From a virus (lineage: Duplodnaviria; Heunggongvirae; Uroviricota; Caudoviricetes): 24,813 nt of DNA. The notes beneath the pieces are model-generated. The model was not told the origin of the DNA. It saw only the letters and a list, made by a program, of their open reading frames with translations, and searched no databases. A program made the position numbers and the translations under genes. The stretch lies in the IMG/VR virus record IMGVR_UViG_2529292921_000026; one strand, given 5' to 3'. Of the stretch, positions 683 through 13,537 are shown piece by piece. The first letter of the stretch is position 1; each line of letters opens with the position of its first letter.

Positions 683-962
683 AGTGATTTTCTTTGCCCT
701 TCTGTTTGACTGTTCTGACCTGTTCCCACTCGATACGTCCTTCTTCTCGCCTTTTGTCTATGTATTCCGCAAGATCCTGAATATTGATGCAACGTTTTGC
801 TTTTTGTGATGTGCCGATGCGATATGTTGGAACGGGCAACTTACAAGCGTTTGCTTTTGCTTCTGCCGTGGCTGGACTCATACCAAAGTACTTTTGGCTA
901 ACTGCTGAGAGTTCAATGTTTGGGGTATTGAATTCAGCCATCAGTAAAAACAAGGTGTTCAT
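681..962 (-). CDS. phage DNA-binding regulatory protein, PrtN (pyocin activator)-like
   Basis: Translation MNTLFLLMAEF...FGMSPATAEAKANACKLPVPTYRIG...DLAEYIDKRREEG matches my recollection of PrtN-family small phage regulators. ATG at 962-960 has GGAG 6 nt upstream; alternative in-frame starts at 974 (ATG) and 989 (GTG). Confidence 0.5.
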   Translation of the reverse strand: MNTLFLLMAEFNTPNIELSAVSQKYFGMSPATAEAKANACKLPVPTYRIGTSQKAKRCINIQDLAEYIDKRREEGRIEWEQVRTVKQKGKENH

Positions 963-998
963 AATTTTCTCCATCAAAACCGGCTGCACCCGGGAAAA

Positions 999-1571
999 TC
1001 ATAATTCTGTGCTGGTGGCAGGAATTAATTTCTGCCAGATAGCGGAAACATATTTTGCCTGATGACGGGCATCAGCCAGGGCGTTGTGCCGTTCGCCATC
1101 GAAAGGCATGTCCATTTTGGGGTCGAATCCGATGGAACGCCCAAGCGTAACGATCGTGCGTACATCGTGGTCATTCCAGTACGCCCACGGGCAGATTTGT
1201 CCTGCTCGCTCGTAAGCTCCACGTAAAATTACGTTGTCGAAGGTGGCCCCGTTACCCCAGACTTTTAAATATTTCGTATTGTCTGCGTGCCGGTTAATGA
1301 AATGGTTTAGTTCTGAGAGAGCATCGCTGATCGACAAAGTATCATCAATACAGATTGCAGCTCGCGCTTCAGGGCTTTGTTTCAACCACCACAGGATGGT
1401 ATCGCCGTCAGGTGTAGCTCCTTGCTTCATAGCACTGTCTAGGCTGACAACCGCATAGAATTCTTGTCCGATGTCTCCGGTTTCTGGAGTGAAGAACACC
1501 GCGCCAATGGAAACGATCGGTGCATCCTTATTTTTCCCCATCGTCTCAAGGTCGATCATTAAGTTGTTCAT
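999..1571 (-). CDS. DnaQ-like (DEDD family) 3'-5' exonuclease
   Basis: N-terminal MIDLETMG (DxE exo motif I) and C-terminal H-x4-D (ERHNALADARHQA) are typical of DEDDh exonucleases. ATG at 1571-1569 overlaps the upstream stop (TGATG), with AGGAGG upstream. Confidence 0.6.
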   Translation of the reverse strand: MNNLMIDLETMGKNKDAPIVSIGAVFFTPETGDIGQEFYAVVSLDSAMKQGATPDGDTILWWLKQSPEARAAICIDDTLSISDALSELNHFINRHADNTKYLKVWGNGATFDNVILRGAYERAGQICPWAYWNDHDVRTIVTLGRSIGFDPKMDMPFDGERHNALADARHQAKYVSAIWQKLIPATSTEL

Positions 1572-2897: not shown

Positions 2898-3532
2898 TGG
2901 TTGCCTCCTTTGCGAAGCTCAGCGGCGAAGGCTACTGCGTGATCATGATGTTCAAGCGTGTATGCACACTCCGCAAACATCTCCACGCCCTGCGCCCGGA
3001 CTTCAGCCAGGAAAGCATCGGTGGCTGGCGTTTCCCGTGAACGGTAAGACCAAACAATGTCGTCTGTTTCACTGGGTTCTTCATGAGAGCAATTTGGGCA
3101 GACAGCAGTACAACCAGCATGATCTTCTATGAGCATCTTCAGCCACGAGTTCTCCTCCGCCAGCGTCACGCGACTGGCCTCCAGTTCTGCTACGCGCTGT
3201 TTTGCAGCATCCAGTTCAATCGACAATTTTTCCAACTGCTCTTTATGCTTTTTATATTCCTGATATGCGTGCCAAGACTGACCTTTGCGCACACTATCAG
3301 TGATATCAGCAACCTGCTCTGGTGTTAGCGTGGTCAGTGGCTGTGCTGGGAAAATAAGCACTTTCCCGGAATCCCAATCAAAACCAGCATGAATTGACTG
3401 AACCTCAACTGAAGGTGTTGAACCAATGCTGCCAGGCGAATGAACAACGATCGTTACATCCATATCGCGACGATGGCTGTGGTTGTTGGACAAAATACGA
3501 TTCACCAACTCAGAAAATTTGGAGAATTTCAT
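2894..3532 (-). CDS. Ead/Ea22-like family protein (coiled-coil plus Cys cluster)
   Basis: 212-aa ORF with a central coiled-coil (KEQLEKLSIELDAAKQRVAELEASRVTLAEEN) and a CxxC...CPNC cluster, positioned in tandem with the other Ea22-like gene. ATG at 3532. Confidence 0.5.
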   Translation of the reverse strand: MKFSKFSELVNRILSNNHSHRRDMDVTIVVHSPGSIGSTPSVEVQSIHAGFDWDSGKVLIFPAQPLTTLTPEQVADITDSVRKGQSWHAYQEYKKHKEQLEKLSIELDAAKQRVAELEASRVTLAEENSWLKMLIEDHAGCTAVCPNCSHEEPSETDDIVWSYRSRETPATDAFLAEVRAQGVEMFAECAYTLEHHDHAVAFAAELRKGGNQ

Positions 3533-3540
3533 GCGGAGCC

Positions 3541-3951
3541 TCAGTATGTAAAATAGACAGTTGCCACGCCGTTATAGTGATCAAACGATACGGCATTTAC
3601 TTCGTAGCTGGCAGGGAGCTTCGATCCGAGAACGTATCCGGGCCACGTTTTCCATGGAATTTCTCTGCGCTCACTATCGCCATATACCGTACATCCCAGA
3701 GAGCCTACAGCTTCATTAGAACGCGTGCCGCACGTTATGAATCCCAGATTTTGCTTACTGCTCTTAATGGTGATTGGGTGAACGCTGGCTGATGCATTAG
3801 CAGCACGCTGTGCCTGTTGGTTTGCGATATTCGCAGAGTTCGCAGCAGCTACAGCAGCCGTAGTCGCGGCGGTAGAGGCTACAATAGCTGCTGAAGCATG
3901 CACTTGTTGGATATTCACCAACAATGCCGCGACAAAAATCATCTTCTTCAC
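3541..3951 (-). CDS. secreted/periplasmic protein with signal peptide, unknown function
   Basis: N-terminus MKKMIFVAALLVNIQQVHA-SAA is a classic Sec signal peptide, followed by an Ala/Thr-rich linker and a two-Cys domain. GTG start at 3951 has AAGGAG 7 nt upstream and overlaps the upstream stop (GTGA). Confidence 0.5.
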   Translation of the reverse strand: MKKMIFVAALLVNIQQVHASAAIVASTAATTAAVAAANSANIANQQAQRAANASASVHPITIKSSKQNLGFITCGTRSNEAVGSLGCTVYGDSERREIPWKTWPGYVLGSKLPASYEVNAVSFDHYNGVATVYFTY

Positions 3952-4298
3952 TTGTCAGCTCCTTTGCGAATCTGTTCCGCCCATTCTTCAAGGGATTTCT
4001 CCGCATATTCACCGGACAGGCCATCAATCGGGTACGGTTCATTAGCCAACTCTTCTTTCGCTGACAGAATCATGCGTGTAACGTCGAAAACTTCACGCAA
4101 AGACTTATTGATAAATCCGTGATTGAAAGCAGCAGCAAGACGGCTTGCGGTATAGTTAATACCCTCGTTGCGAGCCTCAGCACGTACTTCATCGAATTTA
4201 CGCACCAGATACTCAGCATTTGTTTCATTCACTTTCAGATCTCGCGGTACACATTTCCCGCGAAGAAACCCTTCCATTTCGAAAACATTCATGCGCAT
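3948..4298 (-). CDS. hypothetical phage protein (116 aa), possibly YfdS-like
   Basis: Clean ORF with ATG at 4298 and stop/start overlaps on both sides, consistent with translational coupling in the leftward operon. No motif recognised. Confidence 0.45.
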   Translation of the reverse strand: MRMNVFEMEGFLRGKCVPRDLKVNETNAEYLVRKFDEVRAEARNEGINYTASRLAAAFNHGFINKSLREVFDVTRMILSAKEELANEPYPIDGLSGEYAEKSLEEWAEQIRKGADK

Positions 4299-6662: not shown

Positions 6663-7316
6663 TCAAAAATCCATTATTACTTGTTTGACAAGACCAACTA
6701 TTCTGCAGTTCTCACCGCATTCAATAGTTTTATAGTTAGGATTTAGTGGGACGAGATACCTGTTCGGCCAGTCCTCAACAAATTTTTTGAGTGTCGCTTC
6801 TTGCCCACCATTGATATGGGCAACAACGATTTTTCCGTTAATACACTCTGTATCAATAATATCTGGCTCTACGATAACGATAGAACCTTCTGGTATCGAT
6901 GGTGAGCCGAGGGGATTGGTCATTGAATCACCACGGACCCGTAGTGCAAATGCCATTTCTGATACAAGGGCGGTAGTATAAACCCACTCTTCAGCATCTT
7001 CTTTCCTGACACCAGGCTCCGTCATTGTCCATGAACCCGCCTGAACCCACGAGATTAGGGGGACTTTTTTAACTGCGAATATTTCAGGTTTTAGATTTAT
7101 CTTTGGTTCAGGCGAGCCTTTTCCGCTAACAAGCCACAGAGGATCGCATTTAAGTGCGTTGGCTAGGGCTTGAAGGTTGGCTCCATTTGGTTGGTAGTCG
7201 TCCTTTTCCCATCCAGTAACCGTGACACGGTTCACACCAGTCAAATCAGCCAGTGCTTGTTGTGTCAGGTTCAGTTCTTTTCGCCTTTGGCGAATACGAT
7301 CACTCATGTTCATCAT
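6663..7316 (-). CDS. CI/C2-like prophage repressor (N-terminal HTH-XRE, C-terminal S24 LexA-like peptidase)
   Basis: N-terminus RIRQRRKELNLTQQALADLTGVNRVTVTGWE is an XRE-type HTH. The C-terminal domain carries the S24 self-cleavage serine motif (RVRGDSMTNP) and a catalytic Lys region. Overall it resembles P22 C2 as I recall it, and it sits between the two operator regions. Confidence 0.8.
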   Translation of the reverse strand: MMNMSDRIRQRRKELNLTQQALADLTGVNRVTVTGWEKDDYQPNGANLQALANALKCDPLWLVSGKGSPEPKINLKPEIFAVKKVPLISWVQAGSWTMTEPGVRKEDAEEWVYTTALVSEMAFALRVRGDSMTNPLGSPSIPEGSIVIVEPDIIDTECINGKIVVAHINGGQEATLKKFVEDWPNRYLVPLNPNYKTIECGENCRIVGLVKQVIMDF

Positions 7317-7411: not shown

Positions 7412-7609
7412 ATGCGGAAATCCGACGTGATTAATTATTTCGGCGGAGTTTGTAAAACCGCCGAAGCCCTAGGTATTAAGCATCCGTCTGTTTCAGAGTG
7501 GCCTGAGATTATTCCTGAAGGCCGAGCGTACCAGTTAGAAAAAATTACTAACGGGAAACTGAAAGTTGACGTGTCTTTATATCAAAAGACTAACAGTGCT
7601 GCGGCATAA
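7412..7609 (+). CDS. cro: Cro-like transcriptional regulator (P22 Cro family)
   Basis: 65-aa ORF (MRKSDVINYFGG...ALGIKHPSVSEWPEIIPEGRAYQLEKIT) resembles P22 Cro as I recall it. GGGAGA RBS upstream; divergent from the repressor across the operator region. Confidence 0.7.
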   Translation: MRKSDVINYFGGVCKTAEALGIKHPSVSEWPEIIPEGRAYQLEKITNGKLKVDVSLYQKTNSAAA

Positions 7610-7636: not shown

Positions 7637-8221
7637 GTGGGTAAAGAACCTGAATGGAAAGTTGATAAACAACCAGCATGGCTGGTGGCAGCAATACGAA
7701 GAACGATTGCTGATTTACCTCATGGCTATGAGGAAGCAGCAGAAATTCTTGGTTTGTATAAATCTGATGATATCACCCCAGCAAAAGATCAATTGCATAA
7801 CAGACTGCGTAGCGGTGGGGATCAAATTTTTCCACTTGAGTGGGCCATGGTTTTACAGGATGCCAGTGGTACCAGGCATGTAACGGATGCGATAGCGCGT
7901 CGTAGTAATGGGGTGTTTGTGCCGCTGGTGGACATTGATGACATTGACAATGGTGACATTAATCAGCGGCTGATGGAGTCAATAGAATGGATTGGCAAGC
8001 ATTCCCAGTACTTACGCAAGGCAACTGCTGATGGAGTTATTGACCAGGCTGAGCGTGAGCAAATCGAAGAGAACAGCTACCAAGTAATGGCGAAGTGGCA
8101 GGAGCATTTAACACTGTTATTTCGTGTTTTTTGTGCACCGGAAAAGAGTAACGCCCGCGAGTGTGCAGCTCCGGGCGTCGTGGCGTCGATTGCTTCTGGT
8201 TGTGGAGAAACTAACGCATGA
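7637..8221 (+). CDS. phage CII-like regulatory protein (CP76-type), putative
   Basis: GTG start at 7637 has GAGG 8 nt upstream and follows cro by 27 bp. The 194-aa product has a central helix region. Family assignment is from position and weak recall only. Confidence 0.4.
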   Translation: MGKEPEWKVDKQPAWLVAAIRRTIADLPHGYEEAAEILGLYKSDDITPAKDQLHNRLRSGGDQIFPLEWAMVLQDASGTRHVTDAIARRSNGVFVPLVDIDDIDNGDINQRLMESIEWIGKHSQYLRKATADGVIDQAEREQIEENSYQVMAKWQEHLTLLFRVFCAPEKSNARECAAPGVVASIASGCGETNA

Positions 8222-8366
8222 ACAGTTTAACGGCAAATAACCGTTTGTCGCAACAGCTGGTGGTCAGCGTCGCTGAACACCTGTTGTTACGGCATGAATG
8301 CAGATTACCAAATCACCTGGCTGTAAGTAACCACAGAGAACTTTACCTGACTGTGGGGGGCGAGTT

Positions 8367-8546
8367 GTGCAGGAACTTAACCGCTGGTTTCGTGACGGAA
8401 GAGGGCTTTATGTCCATGTTATTCGTTGGGAGCCAGAAACACAGCGCGTTATCTATCTTCGCAAAGACTACCCGCATGAGTGCTTTAGTCCTTTGTGGAA
8501 ATTCAGGCGTGATTTTGTTGAGTGTGAAGGACCACCAGCACATTGA
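8367..8546 (+). CDS. candidate small protein (59 aa) in the cII-rha gap
   Basis: Frame-3 ORF with GTG at 8367 preceded by a GGGGGG run and a 6-nt spacer. Translation MQELNRWFRDGRGLYVHVIRWEPETQRVIYLRKDYPHECFSPLWKFRRDFVECEGPPAH has protein-like composition. It is below the ORF-track cutoff and competes with a frame-1 ORF. Confidence 0.3.
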   Translation: MQELNRWFRDGRGLYVHVIRWEPETQRVIYLRKDYPHECFSPLWKFRRDFVECEGPPAH

Positions 8547-8631
8547 TTCTGCCATTCCGGGACGTTACACTGTTCAGGCACCTTATAAAGCGGGTGCCGG
8601 GATTGGCGTCCTGAAATTGATTACTGAGCAT

Positions 8632-8653
8632 AACCGCGCTCATGCGGTTTTTT
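8632..8653 (+). terminator. weak terminator-like hairpin plus T-run (tR-like)
   Basis: AACCGC(8632-8637)-GCTCAT-GCGGTT(8644-8649) followed by TTTT (8650-8653), within the 600-bp stretch between the CII-like and Rha-like genes. Confidence 0.3.
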
Positions 8654-8823
8654 CGTGTCATGAGCATTGCTACGCCCAAATTATGGTGGGGCGTACAGGG
8701 CCGACTTCGGTCGGGCCGGGTTCGGTAGTCTCCGGTAACGCCAACCCTGTACGTCTCACCACCTCTGTGATTGGCGTCCCATGTGGTGAGTTTTCTGAAA
8801 AACTGACTACCGGGGCTGTCACC

Positions 8824-9381
8824 ATGACTACTCTCCCAACCCTCTCTCAACCTGAAATTGCCATCGTTGATGGTCAGGCTGTTACATCTTCTTTGGCTGT
8901 TGCTGACTTCTTCTCTAAACGTCATGACGATGTTCTGAAAAAGATCCGCATTTTGGATTGTTCTCCAGAGTTTTGTGCCCGCAATTTTGCGGAGACATCA
9001 ATTTTGGTACACCAGCCCAACGGCGGTACTCGCAAACTTCCTTGCTACCACATCACCCGTGACGGCTTCGCGTTCCTGGCAATGGGCTTCACTGGCAAAC
9101 GTGCTGCCCAGTTCAAAGAGGCATACATCAATGCCTTTAACCAGATGGAGAAACAGCTTTCAAAGCCCTCTGTACCGAGCGACGTTGCACATAACGCCAG
9201 CGTTCTCTATTCCTACATTTCATCAATTCATCAGGTCTGGTTGCAGCAGCTTTATCCCATGCTGGAAAAAGCTGAATCACCGCTGGCTGTAAGTCTGTAT
9301 GACCGAATTAACGATGCGGCATTTCTTGCCCGTCTTATTCATTCGTCGCTGAACTCTTCAGAGGTAAGGGGGCGCAAATGA
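8824..9381 (+). CDS. Rha-family phage regulatory protein
   Basis: N-terminal IAIVDGQAVTSSLAVADFFSKRHDDVLKKIR matches the Rha-domain signature (V-T-S-L-x-IAE-x-FGKRHxxVLRxI). ATG at 8824 has GGGG 8 nt upstream. The ORF track's 387-aa version adds a 200-aa upstream extension that I consider unlikely. Confidence 0.6.
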   Translation: MTTLPTLSQPEIAIVDGQAVTSSLAVADFFSKRHDDVLKKIRILDCSPEFCARNFAETSILVHQPNGGTRKLPCYHITRDGFAFLAMGFTGKRAAQFKEAYINAFNQMEKQLSKPSVPSDVAHNASVLYSYISSIHQVWLQQLYPMLEKAESPLAVSLYDRINDAAFLARLIHSSLNSSEVRGRK

Positions 9382-9602
9382 TCCGGAATATTTTCAAACG
9401 ATTTACCAATCAGACTTTCCGTTGTCCTCGCCCCGGTCAGTGGTACACCACGCCTGCAGGGCATGTTCTACGTGTTAGCCTGGTTGACCGTGAATGTCAG
9501 AAGGTGATTTGTGAACCGCTGGGCCGTAATTACCGCGTCAGTATGCCGCTTATAGCCTTTCGCTCCGGAAAAAACATGAAGCATCTCGGAGGTGCGGCAT
9601 GA
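9378..9602 (+). CDS. hypothetical small protein (74 aa)
   Basis: ATG at 9378 overlaps the Rha stop (ATGA) and its own stop overlaps the next start (ATGA). AAGGGGG RBS upstream. The tight coupling supports a real gene. Confidence 0.4.
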   Translation: MIRNIFKRFTNQTFRCPRPGQWYTTPAGHVLRVSLVDRECQKVICEPLGRNYRVSMPLIAFRSGKNMKHLGGAA

Positions 9603-10591
9603 GCCTGTTAATGACATCCCAGCCCATTGTGATAAATCGTGATCTTGCATGCCGTATTGGTCTGAATGAGGCAATTGTGTTGCAGCAGCTTCATTACTGG
9701 CTGAATGAAACGAATTCAGGCACTGAGCATGGCGGAATTCGCTGGGTTTATAACACGACAGAACAGTGGCTGGAGCAGTTTCCGTTCTGGTCAGAGTCCA
9801 CTCTGAAACGCACATTTGCAAGCCTGAAATCACTTGGGGTTTTGCGTCGCGAGCAACTCAATAAATCGAAGCGTGACATGACCAACTTCTACACGATCAA
9901 CTATGAAAGTGAGCTTTTAGAAGAGGTCAAAGTGAACGAATCAATCAGGTCAAAATGCACTTCTCCATCGGGTCAAAGTGACCTGATGGATGGGCGCAAA
10001 ATGACACGATCCATTGGTTCAAAACGACACGCTGTCATCGGGTCAAAATGGCCCAATGATCTTACAGAGAATACAACAGAGATTACTACAGAGAATAAAA
10101 CCTCTTCTCGTCCGGACGCTTCGCAACCGGACACGCAAACGGCTGAACAGGAGTTTTTAACTCGCCATCCTGATGCGGTTGTATTCAGCCCTAAAAAGCG
10201 CCAGTGGGGAACGCAGGATGATTTGACCTGCGCACAGTGGCTCTGGAAAAAAATCATCGCCCTGTACGAGCAGGCCGCCGAATGTGACGGCGAGGTGGTT
10301 CGTCCCAAAGAACCGAACTGGACAGCCTGGGCAAACGAAATTCGCCTGATGTGTGTGCAGGATGGTCGTACCCACAAACAAATCTGCGAGATGTACAGCC
10401 GCGTCAGCCGCGATCCGTTCTGGTGCCGTAACGTGCTCAGCCCGTCGAAGTTGCGGGAAAAATGGGATGAGCTTTCCCTGCGCTTATCGCCGTCCGTCAG
10501 CACGCACACAGAAAAACGTGAAGACCCGTACTTCAAAGCCAGTTACGACAACGTGGACTACAGCCAGATCCCGGCAGGATTCAGGGGGTGA
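9599..10591 (+). CDS. phage replication initiation protein (O-like/YfdO-like, iteron-binding)
   Basis: 330-aa ORF with GGAGGTG RBS, in the position of lambdoid O. Like lambda O, it contains an internal iteron array followed by an A-rich tract. Confidence 0.65.
   Translation: MSLLMTSQPIVINRDLACRIGLNEAIVLQQLHYWLNETNSGTEHGGIRWVYNTTEQWLEQFPFWSESTLKRTFASLKSLGVLRREQLNKSKRDMTNFYTINYESELLEEVKVNESIRSKCTSPSGQSDLMDGRKMTRSIGSKRHAVIGSKWPNDLTENTTEITTENKTSSRPDASQPDTQTAEQEFLTRHPDAVVFSPKKRQWGTQDDLTCAQWLWKKIIALYEQAAECDGEVVRPKEPNWTAWANEIRLMCVQDGRTHKQICEMYSRVSRDPFWCRNVLSPSKLREKWDELSLRLSPSVSTHTEKREDPYFKASYDNVDYSQIPAGFRG
9924..10100. repeat. putative origin of replication: six 14-bp iterons at 23-bp spacing plus an A-rich tract, inside the initiator gene
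   Basis: Copies of (G)GGTCAAARTGAC begin at 9924, 9947, 9970, 9993, 10016 and 10040. They are followed by ACAGAGAATACAACAGAGATTACTACAGAGAATAAAAC (10061-10100). Confidence 0.5.
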
Positions 10592-10593
10592 TC

Positions 10594-11081
10594 ATGAGTC
10601 TGTTAAATGACGTTCAGAAATTCATTGAAGCCCATCCGGGCTGTACTTCCGGAGACATTGCGGATGCTTTTGCAGGTTACTCACGGCAGCGCGTTCTGCA
10701 GTCAGCAAGCAAGTTACGTCAGAGTGGGCGTGTGGCTCACCGTTGTGAAGGAGATACACACAGACATTTCCCGCGCCTGACTGAGAGAGCGCAGGATCCG
10801 GAACTACAACCAGTTCGTGAAACCAGACCTGTGCGCAATTTCTATGTCGGCACTAACGACCCGCGGGTGATTTTGTGCCTGACCCGCCAGGCGGAAGAAC
10901 TGGAGTCCAGGGGCTTATACCGTCGTGCTGCAACGGTGTGGATGGCGGCATTCCGTGAAAGCCACTCCCAGCCAGAACGAAACAATTTTCTGGCGCGTCG
11001 TGAACGGTGTTTACGGAAAAGCAGTAAGCGGGCTGCATCAGGTGAAGAGTGGTATCTCTCAGGGAATTACGTGGGGGCTTA

Positions 11082-11082
<1 letters not shown>
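10594..11082 (+). CDS. PerC/ANR-like putative transcriptional regulator
   Basis: ATG at 10594 has GGGGG 5 nt upstream. The C-terminal motif LESRGLYRRAATVWMAAF...ERNNFLARRERC resembles the PerC-family signature as I recall it. Confidence 0.4.

Positions 11083-13537
<2,455 letters not shown>

Follow-up and report, generated by a model that had tools for sequence, protein, structure and literature searches.

A DUF4222 gene and a probable mobile RNA immunity cassette of the P4/P1/Gifsy-1 type ahead of a Rha-family gene in an Escherichia coli lambdoid prophage

In phages P1 and P4, the C4-type RNA is processed by RNase P from a longer transcript, which gives a stable RNA of approximately 77 nt repressing its target in trans. 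For P1, the antisense repression of an antirepressor-type gene by c4 was reportedly described by Citron and Schuster in 1990 and 1992, and, to our knowledge, no open reading frame (ORF) bridging the RNA genes, in the way the eta gene does in P4, has been described for that phage. The present analysis concerns positions 8222-8823 of a 24,813-nt stretch of viral DNA (Caudoviricetes; IMG/VR record IMGVR_UViG_2529292921_000026), the whole of which is referred to below as the window. It is probable that this region holds, besides a small gene of the DUF4222 family, a mobile and self-contained RNA immunity cassette of the P4/P1/Gifsy-1 type, placed before a Rha-family gene and crossed by a long frame (frame 1) that is translated in an eta-like manner.

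As for the published accounts, the c4 RNA of P1 represses the synthesis of Ant (PMC8546580). In P4, according to PMC10111431, which cites and summarises Forti et al. 1999, the eta gene crosses the RNA genes seqA and CI, and the shorter kil gene is nested within it in the same frame; transcripts from the internal promoter are terminated via CI/seqA interactions, and the translation of eta from the upstream promoter, experimentally shown by Forti et al. 1999, blocks that termination. The Rfam models C4 and isrK pick up relatives of CI and seqA (PMC10111431). Concerning the isrK-orf45 (STnc1160)-anrP locus of Gifsy-1 in Salmonella (Hershko-Shalev et al. 2016, PMC4825925), transcripts that read through IsrK are translationally silent, the orf45/STnc1160 region is a pairing partner of IsrK, the synthesis of AnrP requires the translation of orf45, and the orf45 mutation A107C reduces activation (PMC4825925, Table 1C). 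Both IsrK and STnc1160 are highly transcribed in lysogens (PMC7067206).

Two RNA genes and their recognition sites

The whole window was scanned with Rfam at the curated thresholds, and exactly two matches were found, both located in region 8222-8823. The first one, isrK (RF01394; 59.3 bits for a threshold of 50, E 1.4e-10), is a full-length match at 8578-8654 on the plus strand and corresponds to an IsrK/P4-seqA-type small RNA (sRNA) of 77 nt; at this sRNA, the narrower c4-a1b1 model (RF03163) falls short, with 21.6 bits vs. a threshold of 46.7. The second one, C4 (RF01695, the family that includes the P4 CI RNA; 82.3 bits for a threshold of 45, E 5e-15), covers model positions 1-87 of 87 at 8679-8766, also on the plus strand. 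No tRNA or tmRNA was found across the window. As for the segment 8222-8366, it folds no better than shuffled sequences (z = -1.3) and has no Rfam match even at E <= 1.

The IsrK-like sRNA comprises a first hairpin (8578-8597), a second hairpin (8598-8613) whose loop presents the segment a1 (UUGGCGU, 8603-8609), the segment b1 (8619-8629) and, as its 3' end, an intrinsic terminator made of a hairpin and a T-run, which was called by the terminator scan at 8632-8654. The minimum free energy fold of the C4-like RNA is identical to the Rfam structure (z = -6.0 against shuffles), with a 17-bp basal stem, a UUCG hairpin at 8701-8714, a second hairpin with b' (8720-8730) in its loop and, in a single-stranded junction, the segment a' (ACGCCAA, 8738-8744), to which a1 is complementary. 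The first-pass annotation, made from the letters of the DNA, had pointed out a terminator-like hairpin with a T-run and the GC-rich UUCG hairpin GGGCCGACTTCGGTCGGGCC at 8698-8717. Both are indeed present, the latter as the first hairpin of the C4-like RNA, but they had been taken as separate elements, whereas they belong to the IsrK/seqA-type sRNA and to the C4/CI-type RNA, respectively.

Downstream of the C4-like RNA, and on the same strand, a2 (UUGGCGU, 8771-8777) is identical to a1 and is the predicted downstream target of a', while b2 (GACUACCGGG, 8805-8814), the predicted downstream target of b', enters the Shine-Dalgarno sequence of the Rha gene (GGGG, 8812-8815). The latter is located 9 nt before the ATG at 8824, and is overlapped or abutted by b2. 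When further trans targets of the C4-like RNA were looked for in the window, only a1/a2 and b1/b2 were found, apart from scattered b-like octamers attributable to chance. A conserved AUG (8683-8685, plus strand), within the invariant sequence AAUUAUGGUGGG, lies where the basal stem of C4 has its 5' edge; it is read in frame 1, which stays open from there to the Rha ATG. As judged from its sequence, region 8578-8824 has the defining architecture of the P1 c4 and P4 CI systems and, by analogy with these, the C4-like RNA would be processed from a longer transcript.

The pairing between these segments was analysed in a collection of cassettes obtained from phage GenBank records and 80 IMG/VR loci, i.e. 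100 copies of which 55 are unique. Co-variation and promoter conservation were measured on an alignment of 27 distinct, diverged cassettes. In these 27 sequences, helices 4-6 of the C4-like RNA are 100% paired, and both sides have changed in eight pairs. For a'-a1 and b'-b1 taken together, 96.7% of the cells are paired and 14 of the 18 pairs are doubly changed, vs. 35-43% pairing in slid controls; for b'-b2, all 270 cells (100%) are paired, compensatory changes are present in 7 out of 10 pairs, and the slid controls reach 34-49%. The a and b sites change jointly within each cassette, at all three sites together. Eight a-types and nine b-types make up the recognition repertoire, freely recombined into 18 combinations.

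Duplex energies follow the same pattern. For a'-a2, the mean is -9.5 kcal/mol for cognate vs. -3.6 kcal/mol for non-cognate duplexes over the eight a-types, a'-a2 being cognate in all of them, with a register of a2 shifted in two types because of a 3-nt indel. At the b'-b2 level, the corresponding means are -18.7 and -8.2 kcal/mol.

A candidate cassette promoter was located at 8543-8571 (plus strand), with TTGATT as -35 (8543-8548), a 17-nt spacer and TACACT as -10 (8566-8571). The start of the IsrK-like RNA (8578) falls 7 nt downstream of the -10 hexamer, and positions TTGAT and T-A-x-A-x-T are unchanged in the 27 cassettes, while the DNA farther upstream diverges. This would give the sRNA a promoter of its own, presumably active by analogy with Gifsy-1.

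The DUF4222 gene, the Rha gene and the mobility of the cassette

Just upstream of the RNA genes, a small gene on the plus strand (8367-8546, 59 aa), starting with GTG after a G6 Shine-Dalgarno-like run, was assigned to DUF4222 (Pfam PF13973, 51.1 bits for a cutoff of 27, E 9.5e-14; PHROG 1343, E 1e-36). This is the ORF that the first-pass annotation had noticed as missing from the list of reading frames, and a small protein gene is thus present, as it had suggested. The ratio of non-synonymous to synonymous changes (pN/pS) was computed pairwise, by region and by frame, with homologs including those of the ST64B type. In its own frame, DUF4222 shows a pN/pS of 0.11-0.13 (vs. ST64B-type homologs), which indicates that it is kept as a protein under purifying selection, and the conservation asked of this 59-aa frame is consequently there. 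The Rha-family regulator, in its short form, is encoded at 8824-9381 (plus strand, 185 aa, with an ATG in frame with that at 8218; Pfam Phage_pRha, E 2.8e-27), and its pN/pS is 0.23-0.28 (frame 1, from 8824). Given these low values in their own frames, both DUF4222 and Rha are selected as proteins.

In NZ_CP074961 (positions 3218-4232 of our locus L001, equivalent to window positions 8367-9381), the Prokaryotic Genome Annotation Pipeline (PGAP) uses the same DUF4222 start, but labels the gene as an incomplete pseudogene because of its overlap with the long Rha coding sequence (CDS). The PGAP start of Rha corresponds to window position 8416, and both RNA genes are unannotated; the labels at the E. 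coli locus read 'YmfL family', 'DUF4222 (pseudogene)' and a long 'Rha family' CDS.

The first-pass annotation had also raised the possibility of a programmed frameshift and of tR1/nutR-type control elements, considered here as a frameshift joining DUF4222 to Rha and as a lambda-style nutR/tR1 site with N-dependent antitermination, respectively. The position between the cII-like and replication genes, the intrinsic terminator and the two overlapping open frames speak in favour of such explanations, which are nonetheless extremely improbable. No match to boxA (YGCTCTTWA) was found in 8222-8823, although the window has three matches elsewhere; neither boxB nor an N gene was searched for. Moreover, the terminator forms the 3' end of an sRNA that belongs to an Rfam family and has its own predicted promoter. 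As to slippery heptamers (XXXYYYZ), none is found inside DUF4222, and the region has only two, CCCAAAT and the T-run of the terminator, each located downstream of the DUF4222 stop and in the wrong phase for frame 1. A programmed frameshift is therefore without basis, since no heptamer is in a usable phase, and the same long ORF exists in cassettes devoid of DUF4222. Both the nutR/tR1 site, for want of a boxA-like sequence in 8222-8823, and the frameshift were rejected.

Homology breakpoints were found on the left at ~8532-8542, just upstream of the -35 hexamer, and on the right at ~8840-8858, which is approximately codon 6-12 of the downstream gene. From these homologies, the cassette can be defined as the mobile unit between the two breakpoints. 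The first ~11 codons of Rha (MTTLPTLSQPE) are part of it, and P4 Kil has a homologous N-terminus (MATTLTPSHPE). The downstream partners vary and include different Rha, Ant and other genes. The cassette or close relatives were matched in 2381 of the 5426 complete E. coli genomes, as well as in many Stx phages (phage GenBank records), and E. coli chromosomes carry the same arrangement as the window at 99.7% identity.

The DUF4222 stop codon, TGA (8544-8546), is contained in the -35 hexamer of the candidate promoter. A TGA of the upstream gene is also found within the -35 (TTGA..) of Gifsy-1, where the gene is antQ (L089, 34352-34347), the two upstream genes being unrelated; this coincidence suggests a preferred recombination joint.

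Several loci carry more than one cassette. Two copies each were found in L013, L030, L034, L036, L037, L039, L058, L060 and L088. In L068 (IMGVR_UViG_2671181028_000005, 806-2783), three cassettes stand in tandem at 806-1468, 1465-2124 and 2121-2783, each with an ATGA-coupled long ORF, an isrK match, a C4 match, a small Rha-like domain and a distinct a/b pair, and together they look like orthogonal RNA locks in series.

The long frame across the cassette

The frame-1 ORF (8218-9381, plus strand, 387 codons) is the analogue of P4 eta. It begins at 8218 with an ATG that forms an ATGA together with the TGA stop of the YmfL/CII-like gene, crosses the DUF4222 gene (which is in another frame), the promoter, the IsrK-like and C4-like RNAs and a2/b2, and then enters Rha in frame, with ...LTTGAVTMTTLPTL as one predicted junction peptide. 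That frame 1 is open from this ATG into Rha, and that competing frames overlap RNA structure here, had already been noticed in the first-pass annotation, and both observations are borne out.

Over DUF4222, the pN/pS of frame 1 is about 3, and over the RNA cassette it is about 1, as it is in all three frames. By this measure, the frame-1 peptide is without amino-acid-level purifying selection over DUF4222 and the RNAs. In segment 8218-8366, values of 0.35-0.38 in frame 1, about 0.95 in frame 2 and 0.44-0.47 in frame 3 were obtained (ST64B-type homologs), which hints at a peptide-level constraint on frame 1, but ambiguously so given frame 3. This segment, i.e. the 149 nt between the CII-like stop and DUF4222, has an in-frame indel among homologs.

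The frame-1 peptide had been described as low-complexity. This is not right as it stands, since residues 117-198 of the peptide match the Pfam family Phage_ASH (PF10554, 38.4 bits). This match could mean that frame 1 encodes a true two-domain Ash-Rha protein, the Ash domain being selected and the Rfam matches incidental, and it is consistent with PHROG 821 and 995, which model the long form, and with the long ORFs annotated by PGAP and GenBank depositors. However, residues 117-198 correspond to window positions 8566-8811, i.e. both RNA genes, and two ORFs of P4 are matched by the same family, namely eta, over its entire N-terminal part, and the obsolete 'cI protein', which is the CI RNA gene (Phage_ASH-matching stretch of P4, our locus L008: 8168-8767, minus strand). 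Furthermore, the peptide lacks purifying selection, its amino-acid changes follow the compensatory changes of the RNA stems, and the three-way nucleotide co-variation links sites that code for unrelated parts of the peptide. IsrK and STnc1160, for their part, were detected as RNAs in Salmonella (PMC4825925, PMC7067206). An Ash-Rha protein is thus very improbable, and a purely protein Ash domain is largely refuted by pN/pS and nucleotide co-variation.

Since the Phage_ASH match covers both RNA genes, the P4 'cI protein' ORF and eta, the Pfam 'Ash domain' is essentially a translation of the seqA and CI RNA genes. PF10554 was taken as the profile for epsilon in PMC8628076; P4 epsilon belongs to a different family, PF25738. 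A continuous, conserved frame-1 protein in homologs had been named beforehand as the finding that would speak for a long Rha N-terminal domain: frame 1 is indeed open in homologs, but its conservation is driven by the RNAs, without purifying selection on the peptide. Frame 1 is most likely a translated bridge over an RNA switch and not a protein domain.

From the RNA start to the downstream ATG, over a length of 276 or 279 nt, frame 1 has no stop in any of the 55 unique cassettes, vs. 1-8 and 0-6 stops in the other two frames, and indels are either of 3 nt or come as a -1/-2 pair 27 nt apart. In most genomic contexts, the first ATG of the long ORF is in an ATGA context, overlapping the stops of varied upstream genes. 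The frame also persists where other genes are inserted: it extends 771 nt upstream of the RNA start in L045, overprinting DUF4222 and a ProQ/FinO-family gene, and 1101 nt in L053, overprinting DUF4222 and an opposite-strand Gp49/HigB-like toxin gene with its HTH (helix-turn-helix) antitoxin. Neither upstream stretch contains a stop, vs. 7-28 for the other frames; with a null in which synonymous codons are drawn anew according to the codon usage of the phage, P = 0.0005 was obtained for each. Within-gene codon shuffling was too conservative for this purpose, as illustrated by the L053 toxin gene, which contains no TTA, CTA or TCA codon, and the codon-usage null was used instead.

The ProQ/FinO-family gene of L045 (1074-1466; an RNA chaperone family, Pfam E 2e-13) is located between DUF4222 and the cassette, and could be functionally tied to the antisense system. 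The L053 toxin-antitoxin pair (816-1470, minus strand) lies likewise between DUF4222 and the cassette.

A long ORF is also found in L090 and L091 (P2-like Shae_phiSM and a P88-like phage), at 1144-1761. It has 206 codons, starts 10 nt after the stop of the upstream gene, runs through the promoter, isrK and C4, overprints, in another frame, an epsilon-like derepression gene (1455-1685) and finishes with an ATGA overlap onto the following gene, with 0 stops vs. 4-7 in the other frames.

These data bear on a further explanation, which accepts the RNA cassette but regards frame 1 as an untranslated by-product, either in its upstream part (8218-8577) or in all that precedes 8824, Rha being made from the ATG at 8824 or the AUG at 8683 and the long ORF being an annotation artefact that came along with the conserved RNA sequence. 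The frame-1 pN/pS values (about 1 for the RNAs, about 3 for DUF4222) agree with it, as do a second frame that is also stop-free across the module in some cassette types and, as detailed below, the non-significant openness over DUF4222 in the window alone and the copies working without a bridge ORF. Against it stand the 55 open cassettes out of 55 with their in-frame indels, the ATGA-coupled starts recurring in many unrelated upstream contexts, the stop-free inserted genes of L045 and L053, and the presence of the bridge ORF in P2-like phages together with the translation demonstrated for P4 eta (Forti et al. 1999, as summarised in PMC10111431). An untranslated by-product is therefore regarded as rather unlikely.

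Several points nevertheless weigh against the organisation proposed here, i.e. a DUF4222 gene and a mobile RNA cassette crossed by an eta-like translated frame. Not every member of the RNA family has a bridge ORF: in Gifsy-1, the orf45 AUG comes directly after a stop, L092 and L093 (more distant phage copies) have stops in all frames, and all three work without such an ORF. The existence of these copies also implies that the RNA sequence itself does not force openness. In the window taken alone, the openness over DUF4222 does not reach significance (P = 0.07 under the codon-usage null and 0.69 when codons are shuffled within the gene), swaps of cognate recognition segments alone give P of about 0.03 for a stop-free frame, and the 55 cassettes are not independent, given their shared ancestry. 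The candidate promoter fits only 8 of the 12 consensus positions, which is why the generic promoter scan gave no call, and the promoter claim therefore relies on conservation and on the analogy with Gifsy-1. Also, the Shine-Dalgarno sequence of Rha (GGGG) is weak, and an antirepressor role of the Rha-family protein is assumed. Finally, the mechanism proposed below for this E. coli prophage locus is deduced from its DNA sequence, and the sign and level of control are deduced from published systems in which the RNA does not do the same thing: P1 shows a block of translation, P4 shows termination, and in Gifsy-1 IsrK activates.

Proposed control and comparison with P4, P1 and Gifsy-1

The region stands in a lambdoid early region, in the order: LexA-family CI-type repressor gene (6663-7316, minus strand), cro-like gene (7412-7609), YmfL/CII(CP76)-like gene (7637-8221), region 8222-8823, Rha, a 74-aa ORF, O-like replication gene (9599-10591) and PerC-family gene. 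In the early-right operon, the junctions at 8218, 9378, 9599, 10588 and 11082 read ATGA, ATGA, ATGA, GTGA and TAATG, respectively. All of them, from 8218 to 11082, are overlapping stops and starts, and the chain is unbroken only when frame 1 is included. Farther downstream, an IS21-family element at 11082-13121 (IstA with an rve domain, 11320-12342; IstB, 12339-13121) splits a Dam-family DNA methyltransferase gene, of whose Pfam model only the first ~41 positions are left in the remnant at 11082-11306. A regulated terminator had been suspected at this site; it is real, as part of an IsrK-type RNA device, and occupies the place of lambda tR1 in the early-right operon. As for a nutR-type element, mentioned along with it, no boxA-like sequence was found in the region.

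The following scheme builds on the identity and structure of the two RNAs, their three-way co-variation, the selection on DUF4222 and Rha rather than on frame 1, and a frame that is kept open and ATGA-coupled. In a lysogen, pR being repressed, only the cassette promoter (8543-8571) would fire, and most transcripts would end at the intrinsic terminator, giving the 77-nt IsrK-like sRNA. The read-through transcripts would carry the C4-like RNA, released as a stable antisense RNA whose b' and a' segments would pair with b2 and a2, covering the Shine-Dalgarno sequence so that no Rha is made; on the model of P1 and P4, termination of this untranslated transcript would then follow before the replication genes. 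The a1 and b1 segments of IsrK would act as a target mimic able to titrate C4, and the IsrK:C4 balance would set or relieve the block. An IsrK-mediated relief of this kind is known in Gifsy-1 (PMC4825925).

When pR is active, ribosomes ending the CII-like gene would re-initiate at the ATG at 8218 and translate frame 1 through the cassette, which would prevent the RNAs from folding and pairing and shield the transcript from termination. The expected outcome is an N-terminally extended Rha, presumably with an antirepressor function, and transcription going on into the replication genes, this being the role of eta in P4. The direction of regulation and the anti-termination by translation are thus proposed by analogy.

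Going one step further, it is quite possible, although short of probable, that frame 1 is selected for the act of translation and not for its product. The frame would carry ribosomes over the cassette and, in relatives, also over more than 1 kb of inserted genes located in other frames or on the opposite strand, sparing pR transcripts both the sRNA terminator and the antisense RNA, as N/nut does in lambda. The cassettes would then be orthogonal locks, of at least 8 x 9 types and up to three in tandem, that could set heteroimmunity among co-resident prophages.

The bridge ORF offers a clean natural case for the study of ORFs kept for translation itself, and cross-immunity between prophages finds a concrete, testable basis in the mix-and-match recognition types. 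With its position between immunity and replication genes, an antirepressor-type gene under such an RNA lock could plausibly add a second level of control to the induction of prophages, Stx phages among them. Despite the widespread occurrence of the cassette, all that standard annotation displays is one long ORF named 'Rha' or 'antirepressor', and at times the DUF4222 gene is marked as a pseudogene. The Pfam 'Ash' domain, which has served as a protein marker in the literature, is largely the translation of two RNA genes.

Compared with P4, the window has the same two Rfam families in the same order as the seqA leader and the CI immunity RNA, and an internal promoter, constitutive in P4, inside the long ORF. 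As confirmed on the P4 sequence, eta starts at an ATGA overlap, crosses seqA and CI and contains kil in frame; eta and frame 1 both match Phage_ASH. The two systems differ by their host element, a satellite in P4 vs. the early-right operon of a lambdoid prophage here, by the nested short gene, coding for the 65-aa Kil in P4 vs. a 185-aa Rha-family regulator here, by approximately 90 extra nt between seqA and CI in P4, and by the DUF4222 gene which the long ORF overprints in the window. Control in P4 is by Rho-dependent termination, and the same route is conceivable here by analogy.

As for the immI locus of P1 and P7 (c4-icd-ant1/2), it shares the Rfam family RF01695 and an antisense RNA co-transcribed with its target. 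From the literature, the P1 RNA also has a' and b' segments with upstream a1/b1 and downstream a2/b2 complements, the latter at the ribosome-binding site, and changes in a and b make the specificity differ between related phages. An antirepressor-type gene is repressed by the C4-type RNA in P1 (PMC8546580), but the regulated genes, icd and ant, are not homologous to Rha.

Gifsy-1 has a homologous promoter geometry, IsrK, C4-like RNA and a2/b2 layout, with Rfam matches at IsrK and STnc1160/orf45, and its experimentally defined promoter, PisrK, has the same geometry as the window promoter (PMC4825925). Its a specificity is identical (ACGCCAA / AUUGGCGU), the pairs G28/G31-C162/C159 (PMC4825925) corresponding to a1-a' in the window, and its orf45 AUG lies in the invariant AUUAUGGUGGGG, the first AUG of orf45 being that at window position 8683. 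In both, b2 overlaps the Shine-Dalgarno sequence of the downstream regulator and the TGA of the upstream gene falls within the -35. On the other hand, orf45 ends at an ATGA overlap with anrP, whereas the same frame enters Rha without a stop in the window; the stop directly before the orf45 AUG leaves Gifsy-1 without an eta-like bridge ORF; and the cassette follows antQ in Gifsy-1, but is flanked by the cII-like and replication genes in the window. The present Rha has no sequence relationship with AnrP, an ORF6N-domain protein: no homology was found by BLASTP (E 0.77), and the Pfam domains are different.

As a whole, the locus belongs to a well-understood type of element, that of P4, P1 and Gifsy-1 with an eta-like bridge ORF, carried by a common E. 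coli lambdoid prophage in which it is routinely mis-annotated. Three features were not found described in the published accounts consulted: how many recognition types recombine, the occurrence of cassettes in tandem, and a bridge ORF that persists across inserted genes.

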